Shown one piece after another: positions 29,188-60,669 of a stretch of DNA of 64,000 nt (the first letter of the stretch is position 1; each line of letters begins with the position of its first letter). The DNA lies in NCBI GenBank assembly GCA_947503965.1, contig CANNFU010000004.1:364654-428653 (forward strand), written 5' to 3'. The position numbers and the translations under genes were made by a program. Source of the DNA: an uncultured Rhodobacteraceae bacterium. GTDB lineage: Bacteria; Pseudomonadota; Alphaproteobacteria; Rhodobacterales; Rhodobacteraceae. A model generated the notes under the pieces. The model was not told the DNA's origin. It searched no databases and saw nothing but the letters and a program-made list of their open reading frames with translations.

Positions 29188-29661
29188 ATGAAAAAAACGC
29201 TACTTTCCACCACCGCCATCTTTGCCCTCACCGCGACCACGGGCTTTGCGCAATCGATCGCCGAACAGGTAGTCACGCAATTACAAGCCGAAGGCTACCA
29301 GCGCATCGAAGTCAAGAACGGACCCAATCAGGTCAAAGTCGAAGCAATCCGCAACGGCCGGAAGCTAGAAGTCGTTTATGACGCCGCAACAGGCGCCATT
29401 CTCGATCAAGAGGTCGAGCCCGTCGATGATGATGACGAAACATCACCCGGGGTCGAGATCTCTGACGAGGATGAAGATTTCATCGACGACGAAGATGATG
29501 ACGAAGGCGACGATGAAGATGGCGACGATGATGAAGATGATGACGAAGACAACGATGATGCCGACGACGAAGACGATGATGAAGATGATGATAACGACGA
29601 TGATGAAGATGACGGCGATGATGCCGACGACGAAGACGATGATGAAGATGACGACGAGTAA
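29188..29661 (+). CDS. secreted PepSY-domain protein with about 80-aa poly-Asp/Glu C-terminal tail (paralog 1)
   Basis: 157 aa. A signal peptide (MKKTLLSTTAIFALTATTGFAQS) is followed by a PepSY-like beta-hairpin region (QVKVEAIRNGRKLEVVYDAATGAILDQE) and then a tail that is more than 90% D/E. Confidence 0.7.
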   Translation: MKKTLLSTTAIFALTATTGFAQSIAEQVVTQLQAEGYQRIEVKNGPNQVKVEAIRNGRKLEVVYDAATGAILDQEVEPVDDDDETSPGVEISDEDEDFIDDEDDDEGDDEDGDDDEDDDEDNDDADDEDDDEDDDNDDDEDDGDDADDEDDDEDDDE

Positions 29662-29676
29662 TCGACGTGGTATGGC

Positions 29677-30129
29677 GTGGTTATGATTAAGCGAGCAATC
29701 ATATGTCTTGCCGTGGCTGGGGCGCCGTCCGATGCGGTGGCCCAGTCAGTCCAGGATCACATCGTGCGGCAGCTGCGCGATCAGGGGTTTAGCGATATAC
29801 AGCTGAACCGGACATGGCTTGGCCGTGTCCGGGTCACGGCGGAACGCAATGACCTGCGCCGTGAACTGGTCTTCAACCCTCAAACCGGTGAAATCCTGCG
29901 CGACTATTGGGGCGATGACGACGATGACGGCGGTCCACAACTGTTCAATCCGGGCAATAGCGGCTCGGGTGGTTCAGGTGGCGGGTCATCCGGTGGTGAT
30001 GACGACGAAGACGATCGCGATGATGATGATGATCGTGACGATGACGACGAAGATGATGACGATGATGAAGACGACGATGACGATGAAGACGACGATGATG
30101 AAGACGATGACGATGACGATGATGACTAA
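29677..30129 (+). CDS. secreted PepSY-domain protein with Gly/Ser linker and poly-Asp C-terminal tail (paralog 2)
   Basis: 150 aa with a signal peptide and a PepSY-like region (RVRVTAERNDLRRELVFNPQTGEILRDY). A GSGGSGGGSSGG linker precedes a tail of about 60 aa that is almost pure D/E. GTG at 29677 or ATG at 29683. Confidence 0.7.
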   Translation: MVMIKRAIICLAVAGAPSDAVAQSVQDHIVRQLRDQGFSDIQLNRTWLGRVRVTAERNDLRRELVFNPQTGEILRDYWGDDDDDGGPQLFNPGNSGSGGSGGGSSGGDDDEDDRDDDDDRDDDDEDDDDDEDDDDDEDDDDEDDDDDDDD

Positions 30130-30161
30130 CGCCGACTGATTTCAAAGGAGGCGACACCCCA

Positions 30162-50994: not shown

Positions 50995-51951
50995 GTGAAT
51001 CTGGCGTCTTCTATCGGGTCGGCGGATCGCTTGCAATGCGGGGCAATATCGCAGAATTTGCCCGGACCTCAGCCGGATCATGACATGACGCACTACCCCG
51101 ATCTTTCCGCCCTGACCCGCGACCGCAAACGGTTGCTGGCCCAAGGGCCCGTGGCCCTGATACTGGTCGAGGATACGGTCAAGGTTGAAAGCACAATCCG
51201 TCATCACCTGACGTTGGGTTTTGGGCAGGTCATCGCATTTTGTATGCCTGATCTGACATTGCCTGCGACCGTCGCCGATCAGGTGCACCGTGTCGATTAC
51301 GATATCGCCAGCGAAGAGGCGCTGCCGGACATTGTGAACGCGCTGATCAATGCGGCGCCCGACAACTGGTTCTATTACGGCTACAACGCCGAATACCTGT
51401 TCTATCCATTCAGCGAACATCGCAGTGTCGGCGAAATGCTGGGCTTTGTCACCGAAGAACGGCGTGATGTGGTCATGTCTTATGTGGTTGATCTGTACGC
51501 GGGCGACCTGACCGCACACCCGAGCGGTGTTGCTACGGATGATGCCTATTTTGACAAATCGGGTTACTATGCGCTGGCCCGGCAGGATGCTGAGGGAGAG
51601 GTGCTTGAGCGGCAGATGGATGTCTTTGGCGGGCTGCGCTGGCGGTTCGAGGAACATATCGCCCAGAACAGGCGTCGGATCGACCGCATATCTTTGTTCC
51701 GGGCCAAACCGGGTCTGAAAATGCTGGCTGATCGCACATTCAATCGCCCAGAATACAACACCGTCGCCTGCCCCTGGCACAACAGCCTGACAGCGGCGGT
51801 CGCGTCATTCCGCACCGCCAAGGCGCTGCGCCGCAATCCGGGCAGTCGGCACGAGATCGACAGCTTTCACTGGCAACAGTCAGAGCGGTTCAACTGGCGC
51901 GCGCAGCAACTGATGGATCATGGCTGGATGGAACCGGGGCAATGGTTTTAG
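50995..51951 (+). CDS. hypothetical protein (likely start MTHYPDLS at 51085)
   Basis: ORF call only, with no confidently recognised domain. Its 3' end overlaps the RAYT gene convergently by about 60 bp. Confidence 0.45.
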
Positions 51952-52429
51952 AAGCGATAGCGCCCGTCCCGCGCACTGCCAACGAACTATAGGGCCAGTC
52001 GCCCGCTTTCTTGACCAAACCGGCCTGCACGGGCGCTGTTACGATCAGATGCATGTGACGGTCATAGTCGCCGATGTCCCGGATCAGATGGTCCCAGAAC
52101 CGGCGCTGCCAAATCCCCTTTTCGCCGCGTTTTTGCAGGCGCGGCGCGACATAGGCCGGTGCCGGAACATGGCGCGAAAAGGTCGATTTGATCAATCGCC
52201 ACCGTTTTGAGAAATCCGCATCGCCATTCGGTAACACCCAGATCATATGCAACCGGTCCGGCAGGATCACAGCACTCGCGATTTCAAACGGCCAACGTTT
52301 CATGCAAAGCCGTGTGGCATCGCGCAGCAGATCAATCTGACTGACCAGCAGGTCAGAAGCCGGATTCTGCAAGCGCGCTGTAAAGAAATAGGTGCAGTCG
52401 GGCACATAGCGTCGTTGGCGATTGGTCAT
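51890..52429 (-). mobile_element. REP-associated tyrosine transposase (RAYT, IS200/IS605 TnpA-like HUH Y1)
   Basis: It begins MTNRQRRYVPDCTYFFTARL and has HUH (RLHMIW) and catalytic Tyr region (GDYDRHMHLIVTAP) characteristic of RAYTs. The ORF track N-terminal extension is ignored. Confidence 0.65.
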
Positions 52430-52527
52430 GCGACAGACTTGCCCGGGCATGGTTAGTAAGAGGTAAACGCAACACGTTTTTCGCCAATGACGCACCGGAA
52501 TGCTCAGAAAGTGGGACCGCGCAGGTC

Positions 52528-53235
52528 TTAGCCCATCTCGGTCCCGGCGTTTCGTCTTGCCATTCGGATCAAGGCAAGATCGGCCTTGCCCTTGACCAGC
52601 CATGACAGGCCAAAGGCCCAGATCCCTATCGCCTCGAACCAGAACACCAGACCATAGCCGACAACGATATCTCGCGCCGGACCAGCGCCAAGGATTTTCA
52701 CCGCAGAGGCCGCGGCAATCCCGATCAGTGACAGAATGATGATCCATCCGCAGGCCAGATAGATCTGCCGACGTCCAGGATTAGCGGTGCGGGGGAACTT
52801 CACCAGACAGAAGACCGCGAGACAGGCAAAGAATATCAACGCAGACGCATAGTGAAACATCGGGCTGGTCCCGATTCCGACAATATTCTGGGTCATCGTC
52901 GCGATCTGGTCTGTTGGGCTTTCGTTGGGAAACAGCGCCACGCCAAAGGCTGACACGCCCGCAATCGTGCCCAGCCAATCATCATCAATGACATCGCCCT
53001 CGCGGCGGCCATAGCCGCGATAGCAGATCAGGAAGACGCCGATTGCACACAGCGTACCGACAAAGATGTCGCGGTAGGTCGTGTGATAGAAATCGCTGAT
53101 CGATGGCTCAATCCGGCGATAGTCCATCAGCCCGCCGATGATCAGAACCAGCGGCAGTGCCATGCCCAGAATGCCCAATGCCGTCCGGACCCGGTGATAG
53201 GATAAAACCATATCCTGACGATGTTTTTCGACCAC
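52528..53235 (-). CDS. hypothetical polytopic membrane protein
   Basis: 235 aa with about 6 TM helices. Confidence 0.5.
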   Translation of the reverse strand: MVEKHRQDMVLSYHRVRTALGILGMALPLVLIIGGLMDYRRIEPSISDFYHTTYRDIFVGTLCAIGVFLICYRGYGRREGDVIDDDWLGTIAGVSAFGVALFPNESPTDQIATMTQNIVGIGTSPMFHYASALIFFACLAVFCLVKFPRTANPGRRQIYLACGWIIILSLIGIAAASAVKILGAGPARDIVVGYGLVFWFEAIGIWAFGLSWLVKGKADLALIRMARRNAGTEMG

Positions 53236-53331
53236 AATGACGCCCCTGAATGCCTTGCTGAAATCGCGGGCATCATGGGCAGCGGGTGGGGGCGGTTCAA
53301 GTCAGCATTACCTGACTTTGGGATTTTCGTG

Positions 53332-53748
53332 TCAGGTGCGACGCAAACGGATCACAACGTCAACCGATGCAATTTCTGCCCCTGCCGGGGCTATGGGAAG
53401 TTTGCAAATCTCCAGCTCTTCGGCGGGAGCATCGGTGAGTGTGGCGCTGTCTTCCCAGTAGAAATGAGGATGATCCGTCATGTTGGTGTCGAAATAGCTT
53501 TTCGATCCATCCACGGTGATCTCGCGCACAAGACCTGCGTCGCAGAAGGCGCGCAGCGTGTTGTAGACAGTTGCCAGCGATACCTTTTCGCCAGCGTTCG
53601 ACGCGGCCTCAAACAGGCTCTCTGCCGTGACATGCCGGTCCTGACCATCGCCCACCAGAAGACCCGCCAGCGTCATGCGCTGCCGCGTCGGGCGCAATCC
53701 GGCCCCGGCGAGCCAGTCGGAACTGCGTTGTGTCTCAATCTCGGTCAT
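53332..53748 (-). CDS. irr: Fur-family iron response regulator (Irr-like)
   Basis: 138 aa with a Fur fold (PTRQRMTLAGLL...VYNTLRAFCDAGLVREI). It lies divergent from fabA, as is typical for alphaproteobacterial irr. Confidence 0.8.
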   Translation of the reverse strand: MTEIETQRSSDWLAGAGLRPTRQRMTLAGLLVGDGQDRHVTAESLFEAASNAGEKVSLATVYNTLRAFCDAGLVREITVDGSKSYFDTNMTDHPHFYWEDSATLTDAPAEELEICKLPIAPAGAEIASVDVVIRLRRT

Positions 53749-53907
53749 GGTCGCTCTTACGCTGCCTACGCCTTATATATGGGGGAAAACCCCTTCGGAT
53801 CAATTGCAAATCGTTCTCAATTTGCCGAATCCGGCAGATACTTGCCCTGTCGAAGCCTTGGATGCTAGAGGTCAGCGATCGTAGCAGCCAAGAATGAGAC
53901 CAGAAAT

Positions 53908-54417
53908 ATGGCGGACTTCCCTTCCAGTTTTGACAAGGACGACCTGTTGAAATGCGCCCGCGGCGAACTTTTCGGCCCCGGCAACGCGCAGCTTCCTGCG
54001 CCCCCGATGCTGATGATGGACCGGATCACCGATATTTCGGGCGATGGCGGCGCGCATGGCAAGGGCCACGTGGTGGCGGAATTCGACATCACCCCTGATC
54101 TGTGGTTTTTCGACTGCCACTTTCCCGGCAACCCGATCATGCCCGGCTGTCTGGGTCTGGACGGGCTGTGGCAGCTAACCGGTTTCAACCTTGGCTGGCG
54201 CGGCTGGCAAGGGCGCGGCTATGCGCTGGGTGTGGGCGAGGTGAAGCTGACGGGCATGGTGCGCCCTGACCGCAAGATGCTGACTTACAAGATTGATTTC
54301 ACCAAGGCTTTGCAAACCCGTCGCCTGACGATGGGTGTCGCTGACGGCATCGTCGAGGCCGATGGCGAAGTGATCTATCAGGTCAAGGACATGAAGGTCG
54401 CGCTTAGCGAAAGCTAG
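53908..54417 (+). CDS. fabA: 3-hydroxydecanoyl-ACP dehydratase/isomerase
   Basis: 169 aa with a FabA hotdog fold ([24 protein letters not shown]). Confidence 0.92.
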
Positions 54418-54461
54418 TCACCCCAGTTCAAAGCAGCATATCCTGAACGCGCAGATGCGGC

Positions 54462-55289
54462 TTGATCGCAAGACGCGCCGATGTTTACGTGTTGCTATCA
54501 TATTCGTCGGAAATAACCTGTATGTCTGATAGCGATCGAGAAATGCTGCCCGTCTATCCGGACTTGGATTGTTTTCGGGAATACGACAACCCACCGGAAA
54601 TCATTCCCGGCAGGTCCTCTCGGGATTGGATGGATCAGACGACCAGCCGGTTTGCCTATCGTTGCACGCCTTTACCGATTGCCAATGCAAGTGGCTGGGA
54701 AGTCATTCTGCCGTTCTCAATTGCGGCGCATTGGAATGGTGGCACCTTGCCATCTGATGTGGTGGTCACCTGCGATGATCCCGATGTGCGCCCCGATCTG
54801 GTTGTCGGACCTGTTTTCGGGCACGGCATTTTGACATTCCATCCCGGTTACCTGTTTCGCACCTCGCCGGGTTGGGCGATTGCCGCCCGTGGCGCACCGA
54901 ACACCGTAAAAGACGGCATTACCGCGCTCGAAGGATTGGTCGAGACGGATTGGCTGCCTTTCACCTTTACAATGAACTGGCGCTTTACACGCCCCGGAAC
55001 GGTTCATTTTGCGAAGGGAGAGGCGTTTTGCTTTTTGTCGCTCGTGCCTCATGCAGCACTTGATCAGGTGCAACCGCGGCTGCGCACATTCGCCGAAGCC
55101 GAGGATCTGAAGCACAGCTATGACCATTGGCGCAAGGAACGCGCAGATTTCCAAAAGCGCCTCGCCCAAAGCGACCCCGAGGCCGTCAAACTGGGCTGGC
55201 AGCGCGACTATGTCAGGGGACAGGACCCGTCCGGGCGTATGGTACCCGACTTCCATCTGTCACGACGCACGCTCAAAAGCCCGATATGA
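54462..55289 (+). CDS. DUF6065-like hypothetical protein inserted between fabA and fabB
   Basis: The likely start is MSDSDREML at 54522. No catalytic motif was recognised. GC is about 52%. Confidence 0.5.
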   Translation: MIARRADVYVLLSYSSEITCMSDSDREMLPVYPDLDCFREYDNPPEIIPGRSSRDWMDQTTSRFAYRCTPLPIANASGWEVILPFSIAAHWNGGTLPSDVVVTCDDPDVRPDLVVGPVFGHGILTFHPGYLFRTSPGWAIAARGAPNTVKDGITALEGLVETDWLPFTFTMNWRFTRPGTVHFAKGEAFCFLSLVPHAALDQVQPRLRTFAEAEDLKHSYDHWRKERADFQKRLAQSDPEAVKLGWQRDYVRGQDPSGRMVPDFHLSRRTLKSPI

Positions 55290-55406
55290 GAGTAATGCAA
55301 TGCCGTAGCGGTTGTGCGGATTTAGACCGCGACATGCGCAATCATGCCTGGGACTTCAGTGAAGTTAAGACGCAAACAAGCATTTTGAAATTGAAGAGAT
55401 GACCAT

Positions 55407-56444
55407 ATGATCGCACATATTTCACATCCCATCACGCTCGTGCTTGTCTTGCTTGCCACCGCAGGTAAGGCCGAAGAAATGACGTTTTACTTCACAGGAA
55501 ACGGCGGCAACTGCCTTGGTTGCGAATGGATCGAAGCACAGGGCGAGATCACTGCGAACACGCCCGCCCGGTTTGCAGCATTTGCCGACAGCTTCAACGG
55601 CGCGGGAAGCATCGCCTTTGACTCAGCAGGTGGTGATCCAGTCGCCGCCATGGTGCTGGGGCGGCTCATCAGGGAACGGGGCTGGGGCACGGACCGCCGC
55701 GAACTGGGCACCCCAAGCGGGGCGGACCCCGATCGAGACACCATATGCCGCGATGCGTGTCTACTGGCCTTCATGGGTGGGGTGGGTCGCGACATTGATC
55801 CCAATATCAGCCTGACGGTTACCGGCGTGGGGGTGGATCCATGGATATCAGCCGAAGTTTTGGAATATACGCTGGAAATGGGCGTATCCGCCGAAGTTCT
55901 GACAATCGCCGCGAATGTACCGGTTGGGCAAGCATATGATTTCGACGTGGCTGATCACGAAAGGCTCGGTCTCGACAACACAAAACTGACAACAGACGAG
56001 TGGTATCTGGAACCATATAAAGCAGGTTTGGTTTTGGCGACAAAGCAGCGATACGGCCCTGATAGCGAGCTACCATTTACGTTGTTTTGCAGGGTTGAAG
56101 ACCCACGCCTGCATATTCTGGTTGTTGAACCCGGTGACTACAGCGATCACACATTCCCTGGCGGGACGCCGCTTAACGTTTCATCTGGCCCGAGCCGCTA
56201 TGGACCAATGTTTATCATGGAAGGTGAAAGACATCCGCTGGGGCCGGATGATGTCGAATTTGTGCGTAAGAACGAAACAGGACTCACCGCGTCGATAAGG
56301 TTGCCAGAAACACTTGCCATTCGCGGTGGAGAAGATTTGTCCTTCACGCCCAATTTGGGGCGGGTTTACGGACATATACTACAGTTCAGTATCCCCCTGC
56401 CACCTGCAAGTTGGATCACGGCGGTTCGCCAAAACTGCATCTAA
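55407..56444 (+). CDS. hypothetical secreted protein inserted between fabA and fabB
   Basis: 345 aa with signal peptide MIAHISHPITLVLVLLATAGKAEE and conserved Cys pairs. GC is about 50%. Confidence 0.5.
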   Translation: MIAHISHPITLVLVLLATAGKAEEMTFYFTGNGGNCLGCEWIEAQGEITANTPARFAAFADSFNGAGSIAFDSAGGDPVAAMVLGRLIRERGWGTDRRELGTPSGADPDRDTICRDACLLAFMGGVGRDIDPNISLTVTGVGVDPWISAEVLEYTLEMGVSAEVLTIAANVPVGQAYDFDVADHERLGLDNTKLTTDEWYLEPYKAGLVLATKQRYGPDSELPFTLFCRVEDPRLHILVVEPGDYSDHTFPGGTPLNVSSGPSRYGPMFIMEGERHPLGPDDVEFVRKNETGLTASIRLPETLAIRGGEDLSFTPNLGRVYGHILQFSIPLPPASWITAVRQNCI

Positions 56445-56627
56445 AGTTAAGCGCCAGCGGCTCCTGTCGAAGCTTGAAATACAAAAGTATTCCTTAAGAC
56501 TCTAAAAATCAGCGGCTTAGGACCGAGACTGACATTCTTATAACAAGCTCCATCCCTTAAACACCCGCCACTTGCCCCGTCGCCCCCTGTCGCCTACACA
56601 GCCATCAAAGCTATTGAGGGAGCAGCC

Positions 56628-57857
56628 ATGCGCCGTGTCGTCATTACAGGGTTGGGGATCGTCTCGCCTATCGGAAATAATGCGGATGAAGTGACCGCCG
56701 CTCTCAAGGCCGGACAATCCGGGATCGAAGCCAGCCCCGAAATGACCGAACATGGGTTCCGTAGCCAGATTGCCGGGACGCTCAAGATCGACATCACGGA
56801 ACATGTGGACAAACGCACCCTACGCTTCATGGGGCCGGGTGCCGCCTATGCGCATATCGCCATGCAGCAGGCGATTGCCGATGCAAAGCTGACCGAAGAC
56901 CAGATCGTCAACCCGATGACAGGGCTGATCGCAGGCTCGGGTGGCCCTTCGACTTCTGCCATTCTGACAGCACATAACGTGGTCAGGGACACAGGATCAA
57001 CCAAACGGATCGGGCCCTTTGCCGTTCCCAAGGCGATGTCATCCACCGTTAGCGCAAATCTTGCGACGGCGTTCAAGATCAAGGGGATGAACTTTTCGAT
57101 CACATCAGCCTGCTCTACATCATTGCATTGCATCGGCATGGCCGCGGGTCAGGTCGCACTGGGCAATCAGGACATCATGTTCGCCGGTGGCGGCGAAGAA
57201 CTGGATTGGACGCTGTCCTGCCTGTTTGACGCGATGGGTGCGATGTCATCAAAATACAATGACACACCACAGCGTGCCAGCCGCGCCTTTGACGCCAACC
57301 GCGATGGTTTCGTAATCGCGGGCGGCGGCGCGATGGTCGTATTGGAAAGCCTCGAAAGCGCACAGGCCCGCGGTGCCAAGATCTATGCCGAGGTCACAGG
57401 CTTTGCAGCTACATCCGATGGTGCCGACATGGTCGCTCCCTCGGGCGAAGGCGGCGAACGGGCCATGCGCGGCGCGCTCAGATCGCTGCCAGAGGGCCGC
57501 AAGGTCAGTTACATCAACGCTCATGGTACATCGACGCCCGTGGGCGACGTCGGAGAGGTTGAGGCCGTGCGCCGCGTCTTTGGCCAAGGCACCACACCGC
57601 CAATCAGTTCAACCAAATCCATGACCGGGCACAGCCAAGGCGCGACTGGCGCGCAAGAAGCAATCTATTGCCTCCTGATGTTGCAAGATGATTTCATCGC
57701 ACCCTCTATCAATGTCGAAAACCTGGACCCTGCGCTCGACCCATCCGAGATCGCAACAGATCTTGTTGAAAACGCAGGACTTGATACGGTGATGACGAAC
57801 TCGTTCGGGTTCGGCGGCACCAACGGGTCCATGCTCCTGTCCAAATTCCAAGGCTGA
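56628..57857 (+). CDS. fabB: beta-ketoacyl-ACP synthase I
   Basis: 409 aa with a KAS I fold and active-site Cys context (SACSTSLH). Confidence 0.92.
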   Translation: MRRVVITGLGIVSPIGNNADEVTAALKAGQSGIEASPEMTEHGFRSQIAGTLKIDITEHVDKRTLRFMGPGAAYAHIAMQQAIADAKLTEDQIVNPMTGLIAGSGGPSTSAILTAHNVVRDTGSTKRIGPFAVPKAMSSTVSANLATAFKIKGMNFSITSACSTSLHCIGMAAGQVALGNQDIMFAGGGEELDWTLSCLFDAMGAMSSKYNDTPQRASRAFDANRDGFVIAGGGAMVVLESLESAQARGAKIYAEVTGFAATSDGADMVAPSGEGGERAMRGALRSLPEGRKVSYINAHGTSTPVGDVGEVEAVRRVFGQGTTPPISSTKSMTGHSQGATGAQEAIYCLLMLQDDFIAPSINVENLDPALDPSEIATDLVENAGLDTVMTNSFGFGGTNGSMLLSKFQG

Positions 57858-57861
57858 TCCA

Positions 57862-58653
57862 ATGACAATTTCAATGAACGGCAAACGCGGCCTGATCATG
57901 GGCGTCGCCAACGAACGCTCGATTGCGTGGGGGATCGCCAAAGCTATGGCAGAGGCAGGTGCGGAACTGGCCTTTACCTATCAGGGCGAAGCATTCGGCA
58001 AACGGCTTGAACCACTGGCGCAATCGGTCGGCTCTGACATGATGGTCGATGTGGATGTCACCGATGATGCCAGCATGGATGCGGCCTTTGCGATGATCAA
58101 GGACCGCTGGGGCAGCCTTGATTTCGTGGTTCACGCGATTGCCTTTTCCGACAAGGACGAACTGACGGGTCGGTTCATCAACACGAGCCGTGATAACTTC
58201 AAGAATTCGCTGGCGATCTCGTGCTATTCCTTCATCGACGTCGCCAACCGGGCATCACAACTGATGCCAAACGGCGGCACATTGTTGACGCTGACCTATC
58301 AGGGGTCCAACCGGGTGACGCCGTTCTACAACGTGATGGGCGTGGCCAAGGCAGCATTGGAAAGTGCCACGCGCTATCTGGCGAATGATCTGGGCCCGCA
58401 GGGCATCCGCGTCAATGCAATCAGCCCCGGGCCGATGAAGACCCTTGCCGGGGCCGCAATTGGCGGTGCCCGGCGGACCTACAAACACACCGATCAGAAC
58501 GCGCCACTGCGATCCAATGCGACGCTGGAGGCTGTAGGCGGCACCGCCGTCTACCTCGCTTCAGACGCCGGCGCATGTACCACCGGCGAGATCATTCGCG
58601 TTGATGGCGGTTTTCACGTGCTGGGGATGCCACAACCGGATCATCTGATCTGA
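57862..58653 (+). CDS. fabI: enoyl-ACP reductase (NADH)
   Basis: It begins LIMGVANERSIAWGIAKA... and has the SDR FabI Tyr-x6-Lys motif. Confidence 0.92.
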   Translation: MTISMNGKRGLIMGVANERSIAWGIAKAMAEAGAELAFTYQGEAFGKRLEPLAQSVGSDMMVDVDVTDDASMDAAFAMIKDRWGSLDFVVHAIAFSDKDELTGRFINTSRDNFKNSLAISCYSFIDVANRASQLMPNGGTLLTLTYQGSNRVTPFYNVMGVAKAALESATRYLANDLGPQGIRVNAISPGPMKTLAGAAIGGARRTYKHTDQNAPLRSNATLEAVGGTAVYLASDAGACTTGEIIRVDGGFHVLGMPQPDHLI

Positions 58654-58739
58654 CAGCGACAAGCACCTTACGGCAAATCAACCCATGACCGGTGCCGATG
58701 CATGCAAGCGCTGACACGATCAGAGCGCGAATACGCGCA

Positions 58740-60032
58740 TCAATAGGTGTTCAGCTCTGCAAACAGATCGGCAGGCGCACCTGCAAACACTGCGGCAAGA
58801 TCTTGTGCAAATTCGGCCTCGGTGTCGTATCTGGTCTGGCTGACCAGTTGACCATCATCATCGTAGAGATTGATGATACCGAAATCATGGCCGCCGTTGT
58901 ATCCAAAATCAGAAATATCTTCGCGTGCAAAAACAAGCACATCACCATCCGCATCATATTTCAGATACCGGACTTCATCAGCATCGTCTTCCCACGCGCG
59001 ATAGGTCCGGTTTCCATCTGCGTCGAAAAAGGTGACCATCTGCTCGTATTCGCCGGATGGGACGAAATCAAACAGGATGTTGTGCTGTCCGATCTTGGTC
59101 AGCACGCCGTCAGTATAGAACTTTCGCACACCGTCCGTGAAATCAAAGCGATCATAGAAAATCGCGATCTCGCCATCGGCGTCATATGTGATCTCGCGTT
59201 CCAAAAAACCGTATTTGTTATCTACATCCCAAATCTTGGCATGGGCCAAAACTCCATTTTCATAGGTTTCCCTGGTCAGAAGATAATCATCGTAAGCAAT
59301 AATGCGTTTGGTCAGGACACCCGCTGCATCGTAGCTTTCCGTGATCGTTTCCCAGTCGCGCAGGTTGGTCGGCGCATCAACGAAACGAACGATGGTGCTG
59401 CCATCGCTTTGCACCGTTTCCTTGCGGGTAACTTCGTTTTTCGGAATGCGGCCGTTGCTCCAATCCTCTTCAGAAGCAAAGAATACCTGATCGATGATTT
59501 CACCATTTTCATAGATATCCGCACGCACCCGACCATCATCAGTGATGGTTGCGACTTCATCCAGAATATCATCGTCACCGAAATATTCGATCTTTTCCTG
59601 CCAGCGATACGCGTCGCCCAAATCGGCAGTGCGTGCATAAACCACAGCACCGTCTTCATACACGGCCTTGCGTTCGCGGCCATCGTCAAAGGCAGTCGTT
59701 TTCAACCGCTCAACGCCAGTGATATCGAACGTCACCTGAATACTGTCCCAAGTATACAAGTCATTTTCGCTGTCGTCATAGCGCACAATCTGTCGGGTAT
59801 TAATGACCGCAAACGCGTCCCTGTCATAGAGATTGCGGTATTCCGTCGTCTTGACGACATCGTCATGAGCAATCTCTTCTGATCGGACGCGCACATAAGG
59901 CTCATCAATCGGAAGGCTGAAATAATCCCGTTGTGTGACAATGCCGTTTTCGGTCGTTACGTCCAAACGATCGTAACGGGTATTTTCAATCGTTCTGCCG
60001 CGCGGAAAGAAATCAAATGTTTCTGTAGGCAT
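58740..60032 (-). CDS. hypothetical repeat protein (about 20-residue Y-x-[DE]-[ND]-G repeats), low GC
   Basis: 430 aa with no signal peptide. It has recurring motifs (IYENGEIIDQVFF, TYENGVLAHAKIWD, ITYDADGEIAIFYD, FYTDGVLTKI, LKYDADGDVLVFARED, NLYDDDGQLVSQTRYD). GC is about 47%. Confidence 0.55.
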   Translation of the reverse strand: MPTETFDFFPRGRTIENTRYDRLDVTTENGIVTQRDYFSLPIDEPYVRVRSEEIAHDDVVKTTEYRNLYDRDAFAVINTRQIVRYDDSENDLYTWDSIQVTFDITGVERLKTTAFDDGRERKAVYEDGAVVYARTADLGDAYRWQEKIEYFGDDDILDEVATITDDGRVRADIYENGEIIDQVFFASEEDWSNGRIPKNEVTRKETVQSDGSTIVRFVDAPTNLRDWETITESYDAAGVLTKRIIAYDDYLLTRETYENGVLAHAKIWDVDNKYGFLEREITYDADGEIAIFYDRFDFTDGVRKFYTDGVLTKIGQHNILFDFVPSGEYEQMVTFFDADGNRTYRAWEDDADEVRYLKYDADGDVLVFAREDISDFGYNGGHDFGIINLYDDDGQLVSQTRYDTEAEFAQDLAAVFAGAPADLFAELNTY

Positions 60033-60234: not shown

Positions 60235-60669
60235 TCAGGCCGCGTCGATCCCGACAATTTCAATCGCGAAATTCAGATCCTGCCCGGCCAGCGGGTGATT
60301 GGCATCCAGCGTCACCTCTGTCTCGGTCACTTCGGCCACGACGACCGGCACGACCTGTCCCTGAGGTGTCTGCATCTGCAACCGCGTGCCCTGCTCTAAC
60401 GGGATGTTGTCCGGGATCTCGCTTCGCGGAATGGCCTGCCGCGCCTCTGGGTTATGTGCACCATAGGCGTCCGCACAGGGCACGTTCACCACCTTCTTTT
60501 CACCCACGGCCATACCGGCAATTGCGGCATCCAGACCTTTGATAATCTGCCCGGACCCCACCACAAATTCCAGCGGATCGCGCCCTTCGGAACTGTCGAA
60601 CTGATCCCCGTTATTCAGGGTGCCAGTATAGTTGATCCGCACGGTATCACCTTCTTTTGCTTGGCTCAT
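60235..60669 (-). CDS. FKBP-type peptidyl-prolyl cis-trans isomerase (SlyD-like, no His tail)
   Basis: It begins MSQAKEGDTVRINYTGTL and has an IF (insert-in-flap) domain. The ORF track extension to 60813 overlaps the downstream gene start and is spurious. Confidence 0.8.
   Translation of the reverse strand: MSQAKEGDTVRINYTGTLNNGDQFDSSEGRDPLEFVVGSGQIIKGLDAAIAGMAVGEKKVVNVPCADAYGAHNPEARQAIPRSEIPDNIPLEQGTRLQMQTPQGQVVPVVVAEVTETEVTLDANHPLAGQDLNFAIEIVGIDAA

Follow-up and report, generated by a model that had tools for sequence, protein, structure and literature searches.

The closest described counterparts of the locus reported here are the fabA-fabB operon of Pseudomonas aeruginosa and the irr-fabA-fabB-fabI cluster of alpha-proteobacteria. 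The same genes, in the same order and with irr divergent from fabA, were found in a 64,000-nucleotide stretch (hereafter the window) of an uncultured Rhodobacteraceae bacterium (GenBank assembly GCA_947503965.1, contig CANNFU010000004.1, positions 364,654 to 428,653, forward strand). In contrast to those operons, fabA and fabB of the window are 2.2 kb apart, with a gene of the DUF6065 family, a second open reading frame (ORF) named ORF2 and two promoter-like elements between them. In Cognatiyoonia, the two halves of the cluster are even located at different loci.

Flexible genomic islets offer a second point of comparison. As in such islets, conserved flanks (irr-fabA and fabB-fabI) enclose unrelated short cargo of 0.4-7 kb, with many independent gains and losses and no integrase or tRNA. 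The slot described here differs from them in two respects: it lies inside a biosynthetic operon that is tight elsewhere, and its downstream core genes appear to be preceded by a dedicated promoter-like element in split-type genomes. A literature search on fabA/fabB/irr synteny gave nothing relevant, and no description of a fabA-fabB slot was found in it.

The explanation favoured here, with a probability of about 0.75, is that the fabA-fabB junction of Roseobacter-group genomes is an insertion-tolerant, often remodelled slot, and that its filling in the window consists of two independent modules. The locus is a new example of known genome plasticity and as such represents ordinary genome variation.

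Variability of the fabA-fabB junction

The 80 best FabA loci were collected with one genome per species; all belonged to Rhodobacterales and had a FabA identity of 91-98%. The left flank was nearly constant, irr adjoining fabA in 79 of the 80. For the 73 loci carrying fabA and fabB in the same orientation, the gap between both genes was at most 120 bp in 32 cases, 120-400 bp in 6 and 0.4-5.6 kb in 35. The gaps contained 68 ORFs, which fell into 64 clusters, 60 of them singletons, and cargo was almost wholly unrelated between species. Sampled cargo included a Hint-domain protein, a GST, a GFA enzyme, a YrbL-like protein, an OmdA-domain protein and an LRR protein. Adjacent and split states were interleaved in a neighbour-joining tree of FabA, FabB and FabI, with at least 20 state changes among 67 taxa.

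Taken together, the gap lengths, the unrelated cargo and the interleaved tree indicate that the junction is a site of recurrent gain and loss. An earlier note on this DNA had started from the premise that fabA and fabB are normally adjacent; this holds for only about half of the order, since 35/73 loci have 400 bp or more with unrelated cargo. A junction of 14-102 bp, consistent with co-transcription, was seen in about half of the Rhodobacterales examined. Neither DUF6065 nor ORF2 was found near fabA in any of the 80 species loci.

Closer relatives were found among uncultured Yoonia and Loktanella genomes with FabB 90-92% identical to that of the window. Their fabA-fabB junction measured 32-39 bp (L021, L043, L054 and L063), and compared with these genomes the window indeed contains inserted DNA, as the earlier note had proposed. 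Yoonia, Loktanella and Cognatiyoonia shared the following backbone, in which (-) denotes the minus strand: miaB(-), GT-like, REP-associated tyrosine transposase(-), [DUF998(-)], irr(-), fabA, [slot], fabB, fabI, [slot], FKBP(-).

As a separate observation, the cluster of Cognatiyoonia was physically broken at the fabA-fabB junction. Cognatiyoonia sp. IB215182 (L007, 7424-9433) carries a FabH-like gene (minus strand), irr (minus strand), fabA, an unrelated gene and carB, with no fabB within 8 kb. Cognatiyoonia sp. IB215446 (L082, 4941-10696) carries DUF6065-TetR-fabB-fabI without irr or fabA.

Two modules in the slot of the window

Read along the plus strand, the order in the window is irr (minus strand), fabA, the DUF6065 gene, ORF2, fabB and fabI. 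The features are as follows.

53332..53748, minus strand: irr, Fur-family iron response regulator (NCBIfam IrrA/Irr equivalogs, E 1e-60); divergent from fabA; left flank.
53908..54417, plus strand: fabA, 3-hydroxydecanoyl-ACP dehydratase/isomerase (NCBIfam FabA equivalog NF003509, E 8e-80; Pfam FabA, E 2e-43).
54461..54489, plus strand: CTTGAT-N17-TTTACG, promoter-like element of the DUF6065 gene, ending 32 nt before its ATG; putative function.
54522..55289, plus strand: DUF6065 gene, 255 aa from ATG; full-length PF19541; cytoplasmic protein with dUTPase-like beta-barrel core and C-terminal helical extension.
55290..55406, plus strand: spacer between DUF6065 and ORF2, module boundary; homology to L085 restarts at 55371.
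55407..56444, plus strand: ORF2, 345 aa; putative signal peptide, ClpP/NfeD/SppA-like domain without the catalytic Ser and His, possibly IalB-like C-terminal beta domain.
56571..56598, plus strand: CTTGCC-N16-CCTACA, promoter-like element of fabB, ending 29 nt before its ATG; putative function.
56628..57857, plus strand: fabB, beta-ketoacyl-ACP synthase I (NCBIfam KAS I equivalog NF005935, E 4e-190, 631.8 bits, cut-off 630).
57862..58653, plus strand: fabI, enoyl-ACP reductase (NCBIfam NF005078, E 9e-118; Pfam adh_short_C2, E 1.5e-86); right flank.

The matches of irr, fabA and fabB pass the cut-offs of their own models; the best NCBIfam match of fabI (NF005078) scores 392 bits, under that model's cut-off of 446 bits. 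fabI starts 4 bp past the end of fabB. From fabA stop to fabB start, both on the plus strand, the distance is 2,210 bp with two ORFs in between. This agrees with the interposition of two genes over about 2.2 kb described in the earlier note, which was likewise right about a DUF6065-like first gene (full-length PF19541 match) and about a 345-aa, Cys-containing second ORF with a signal-peptide-like N-terminus (55407-56444, six family-conserved Cys).

Gene contexts were compared between the window (fabA / DUF6065 / ORF2 / fabB) and its close relatives. Only L085 has the same order (fabA 3' end / DUF6065 / ORF2 / fabB). In L089, fabA and DUF6065 are followed by a 326-aa LRR protein, fabB and fabI; in L087 and L088 they are followed by a di-haem cytochrome c peroxidase-like gene plus four further genes and then fabB. 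In L082, irr and fabA are gone from the locus, which reads GT-like gene / DUF6065 / TetR (minus strand) / 93-aa ORF / fabB / fabI, and in L090 a DUF6065 copy, 86% identical, stands after rplS and rpmE. The closest DUF6065 homologues in relatives are 80-90% identical. These contexts identify DUF6065 as a stable resident of a small clade, with the position after it filled differently each time.

Homology breakpoints were determined by pairwise blastn. Homology to L003 and L063, both without the insert, ends at 54416, the fabA stop, and homology to L082, where no fabA is present, starts at 54450. For L089, L087 and L082 it ends at 55285-55290, the DUF6065 stop. It restarts at 56563-56566 in all split-type relatives and only at 56626, the fabB ATG, in adjacent-type L063. 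Compared with the window, L085, the contig most like it, is 88% identical over the ORF2-fabB segment and 80% over the fabA-DUF6065 segment. Its DUF6065-ORF2 spacer is longer than that of the window and contains, at 1000-1090, a degenerate second copy of the 3' end of fabA that aligns over about 85 nt (tblastn match PDRK..IDFTKA..RLT, E 0.005) and is absent from the window. ORF2 may have entered by a recombination event of which this fragment is the scar.

What had been taken for a single two-gene insertion is thus resolved by these breakpoints into two modules with different histories, at about 54450-55290 and 55291-56565: homology is interrupted at the boundary of DUF6065 and ORF2, and what follows DUF6065 differs among relatives except L085. 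The earlier note had considered that close relatives might carry the same two genes. This was so for DUF6065, which is common to the nearest clade, and not for ORF2, for which the only match at the slot was in one contig of roughly 92-95% identity.

Under the favoured explanation, module 1 comprises the DUF6065 gene with its own promoter-like element and is common to the window's nearest, Cognatiyoonia-like clade. Module 2, ORF2, would have been added later; it is present in the window and one very close relative only. The normal home of ORF2 homologues is another locus, extending from an ABC-F ATPase gene to a LysR regulator gene. ORF2 homologues of 62-75% identity were found between these two genes in Yoonia sp. 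BS5-3 and GCA_947501555, and the usual arrangement is ABC-F / ORF2 (one or two copies, once a tandem pair) / LysR (minus strand) / DUF1330. At the fabA-fabB slot, ORF2 occurs only in the window and L085. Cargo may be exchanged when the strongly conserved flanks recombine (FabA identity between genera is 92-98%), and neither cargo gene would take part in fatty-acid synthesis.

Base composition

Guanine plus cytosine (GC) content was 56.3% for 54462-55289 (57.2% counted from the ATG) and 55.3% for ORF2; the window as a whole had 57.3% and the fab genes 58.5-60.8%. The values of about 50-52% given earlier for the inserted genes were therefore too low. GC equal to or below that of the insert was found in 17 of 124 sliding 2-kb windows. 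At third codon positions (GC3), DUF6065 had 0.617 and ORF2 0.572, versus 0.644 +/- 0.050 for the 55 long ORFs of the window. The composition of DUF6065 is unremarkable and that of ORF2 mildly low, within the lowest 9%. Foreign origin on the ground of composition was consequently rejected for DUF6065 and considered weak for ORF2, GC and GC3 being near the values of the window.

Promoter-like elements

In each of the six close loci, the element CTTGAT-N17-YTTACG precedes DUF6065 at a constant distance, irrespective of which gene (fabA, GT-like or rpmE) lies further upstream. In the window, this element had a single match, with 0 expected from shuffles. CTTGCC-N16-CCTACA, 5' of fabB, was also the sole match in the window (0.11 expected). 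Using a relaxed pattern, the fabB-proximal element was detected in 21/40 split, 2/6 intermediate and 1/32 adjacent loci. Where present, it nearly always ended 27-32 nt, and mostly 28-30 nt, ahead of the fabB ATG. The ribosome-binding region before fabB also differed: split loci had TGAGGGAGCAGCC-ATG and adjacent loci had AAAGGAGAGGTGCCC-ATG. Both elements resemble the alpha-proteobacterial sigma-70 consensus CTTGAC-N17-CTATAT (PMC2873474).

The proposal that the inserted genes may carry their own promoter logic fits with these conserved elements, putative promoters, before DUF6065 and fabB. A single fabA-fabB transcription unit would be expected to have a short junction and no internal promoter; with a gap of 2,210 bp and two promoter-like elements, the genes of the window probably do not form one. 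Given the fabB-proximal element of split-type genomes, fabB-fabI need not depend on transcription of fabA. A promoter of their own, still putative, would allow the slot of split-type genomes to tolerate cargo, with no dependence on read-through from fabA. Read-through may nevertheless occur as well, as no terminator was found after fabA, DUF6065 or ORF2: between fabA, DUF6065, ORF2 and fabB the six terminator-like matches were all inside ORFs and at chance level.

The 183-nt leader of fabB had no stable fold (z = 0.93), and no Rfam RNA was detected in 53200-58800. The iron control element (ICE) box bound by Irr (TTTAGAA-N3-TTCTAAA, at most 3 mismatches) was absent from the window, and the inserted genes are therefore not proposed to be under iron control.

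Several points weigh against the explanation as a variable slot with two modules. The 80 species loci are the top FabA matches and not a random sample, and the tree behind the number of state changes is crude, having been made from the fab genes themselves. Only the 21 of 40 split loci mentioned above fit the regular expression for the fabB-proximal element. A generic E. coli-type sigma-70 scan found nothing at either element and returned one chance-level match, inside fabB. The promoter assignments are drawn from conservation and resemblance to a consensus, and the element near fabB could bind a regulator instead. Finally, five of the six close contexts keep DUF6065 beside fabA or fabB, and selection, not inheritance, could be the reason.

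Alternative explanations

According to one alternative, both genes belonged to the fabA-fabB cluster from the start and were lost in other lineages. This would agree with the presence of DUF6065 in all five fab-linked close relatives, with its GC and GC3, which match the host genome, and with the spread of the split state and the fabB promoter-like element over many genera. It is nevertheless unlikely: neither gene occurs at the fabA-fabB site in the 80 species loci, the nearest Yoonia and Loktanella genomes have the short junction of 32-39 bp, and the second slot position holds a different gene in each relative. ORF2 is limited to two loci, and both Yoonia sp. BS5-3 and GCA_947501555 carry it at a site other than the fabA-fabB slot. 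For DUF6065, an ancestral state would extend to a single small clade at most.

Retention of DUF6065, with or without ORF2, beside fabA/fabB for a role in unsaturated fatty-acid or membrane homeostasis was judged equally improbable. Within the window's clade, DUF6065 directly follows fabA in four loci with no terminator between the two, and in L082 it is still located 5' of fabB although irr and fabA have left. Against this, DUF6065 was found in 0/80 Rhodobacterales fabA loci. Among 80 metagenomic DUF6065 loci (49-87% identity), fab linkage was confined to L089, a close relative; in a soil contig (L150), fabB and fabI are about 3.8 kb from DUF6065. The other recurrent neighbours of DUF6065 in metagenomic loci were unrelated housekeeping genes, and the copy of L090 lies beside rplS and rpmE. 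The dUTPase-like fold has no known lipid connection, and ORF2 homologues were never fab-linked outside the window and L085. A tie to membrane lipid homeostasis, as put forward in the earlier note, is thus not supported, with fab genes nearby in 2/80 metagenomic DUF6065 loci and ORF2 homologues at the ABC-F/LysR locus. Persistence of DUF6065 beside fabA/fabB within one clade is most simply explained by inheritance. In the Cognatiyoonia-like clade, DUF6065 was retained beside fabA/fabB through at least four slot rearrangements; that this reflects a lineage-specific coupling to unsaturated fatty-acid synthesis is a rather more doubtful proposition still. Such a coupled DUF6065 might be, for example, a small-molecule-binding regulator or an enzyme co-expressed with fabA.

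The last alternative involves one further feature of the window.

51890-52480, minus strand: REP-associated tyrosine transposase (RayT) gene (NCBIfam NF047646, E 2e-46; no Pfam match).

Entry of both genes into the operon on one mobile genetic element (transposon, integron cassette or integrative islet) is very improbable and largely refuted: despite this transposase gene 1.4 kb upstream of fabA and the duplicated fabA 3' fragment of L085 as a possible recombination scar, the slot has no integrase or insertion sequence element (only two ORFs, neither a recombinase) and no tRNA (Rfam reported no RNA in 53200-58800; no dedicated tRNA scan was made), direct and inverted repeats around the insert do not exceed chance, no REP-like repeats are present in the slot, DUF6065 and ORF2 have separate homology boundaries and separate distributions, and the transposase gene is kept in relatives with and without cargo.

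In 11 related loci the transposase gene occupies a conserved position, flanked by the GT-like gene and irr. It was also considered as a driver of slot variability and set aside, as no REP copies are present in the slot and the gene occurs in cargo-free relatives too.

The DUF6065 protein

The Pfam match to DUF6065 (PF19541) was full length (profile 1-236 of 236; E 7e-91, 304.3 bits versus a cut-off of 26.6). The start shared with homologues is the ATG at 54522 (MSDSDREMLPVY in the window; homologues have MPDTDREMLPVY), not the TTG at 54462 used in the earlier note. The gene is therefore probably 54522-55289, encoding 255 aa, with the TTG start too far upstream.

DUF6065 has the same type of beta-barrel fold as the trimeric dUTPase/dCTP deaminase superfamily. 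It differs from this superfamily in having 6-15% sequence identity, about 100 additional residues and no Gly-rich motif V arm. The C-terminus forms an extension of about 70 residues that is largely helical (helices 194-215, 219-224 and 228-231) and ends in an unstructured tail. Motif III of the superfamily is G-x-I-D-x-D-Y-x-G with a conserved Asp. In hhalign, the conserved GLVETDW of DUF6065 was placed opposite the dUTPase motif III GLIDSDY with a probability of 1.6%, that is, without statistical support. In the DUF6065 family, E141, T142 and W144 of this segment are invariant and D143 is present in at least 90%. The Gly-rich motif V (RGxxGFGSTG), needed for dUTP hydrolysis, is absent from the DUF6065 consensus. 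Because the motif III alignment lacks support and motif V is missing, DUF6065 is called a dUTPase-fold protein and not a dUTPase.

No mention of DUF6065 was found in the literature. Searches of the PDB with DUF6065 and ORF2 family profiles gave nothing significant (best NfeD, E 0.35), and the PADLOC defence models had no match to DUF6065, ORF2 or a neighbouring 430-aa gene.

In one locus (L141, 951-2666), a 571-aa ORF was observed in which a DUF6065 domain runs into a sulfotransferase-like C-terminal part. Its C-terminal SYPKSGNTW was read as a motif of the 3'-phosphoadenosine-5'-phosphosulfate (PAPS)-binding type. This possible domain fusion might hint at the function of DUF6065.

The ORF2 protein

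ORF2 has a signal-peptide-like N-terminus by sequence, consisting of a hydrophobic stretch followed by AGKA/EE. Cys 36, 39, 114, 118, 228 and 344 are conserved across the family, which is tiny, with 24 matches in 5.8 billion proteins. No Pfam model matched ORF2.

The ClpP/crotonase fold is common to ORF2 and the serine peptidases ClpP (S14), SppA (S49) and NfeD. Unlike these, ORF2 is without the Ser nucleophile and its His (ClpP) or Lys (SppA/NfeD) partner, and is Cys-rich and predicted to be exported. When residues were matched to the catalytic ones of ClpP by eye, a ClpP-like Ser (in C-x-S-A-C) and His (in GVHQFY) were recognised in distant members of the family. ORF2 of the window has Asp at the Ser of C-x-S-A-C, and the GVHQFY segment is deleted in it and in its eight closest aligned homologues (P0002-P0009). 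With Ser changed to Asp and the His segment lost, the subfamily of the window is probably a non-catalytic periplasmic protein and not a protease. We know of no described fusion of a ClpP-like and an IalB-like domain.

At the ABC-F/LysR locus, repeated motifs of the GCGTACA type (e.g. GCGTACAGAACGCGTACAT) were noted 5' of ORF2 homologues (L081 5870-6000, L084 5870-6000 and L086 1-95). They resemble a regulator-binding site and are not recognisable 5' of the window's ORF2. ThiF-like and nitroreductase-like genes were present in the slot of L087 (11265-14265, with an acetyltransferase) and also beside the ORF2 homologue of Yoonia sp. BS5-3 (L081 932-4035, with a YcaO gene). This recurrence may be a coincidence or point to a shared accessory cluster.

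Other regions of the window

A second variable slot lies between fabI and the gene for an FKBP-type isomerase. In the window it holds the 430-aa gene mentioned above (58740-60032, minus strand; GC clearly low at 49.2%, GC3 0.53), which belongs to no Pfam, NCBIfam or PADLOC family; a MORN_2 repeat match was sub-threshold only. None of the fetched loci contained a homologue, and DNA homology to relatives stops at 58651-58654 and restarts at 60239. Elsewhere in the window, a coding region at 29400-30160 consists of degenerate Asp/Glu-rich repeats of 9-12 nt (GAT/GAC/GAA runs), arranged in two blocks about 400 bp apart.

Significance

The main worth of these results lies in a correction: a pair of genes inside an essential lipid operon looks functional, yet reflects a slot that varies in about half of Rhodobacterales. 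The fabB-proximal element of split-type genomes predicts two modes of fabB expression within the order. ORF2 defines a rare architecture, predicted to be exported, that combines a ClpP-like with a possibly IalB-like domain, and one of its subfamilies has lost the catalytic residues. The DUF6065 family, which has over 1,000 members and on which no paper was found, is characterized here as having a dUTPase-like core and as moving with its own promoter-like element. If true, a coupling of DUF6065 to unsaturated fatty-acid synthesis in the Cognatiyoonia-like clade would provide the first functional handle on this family.

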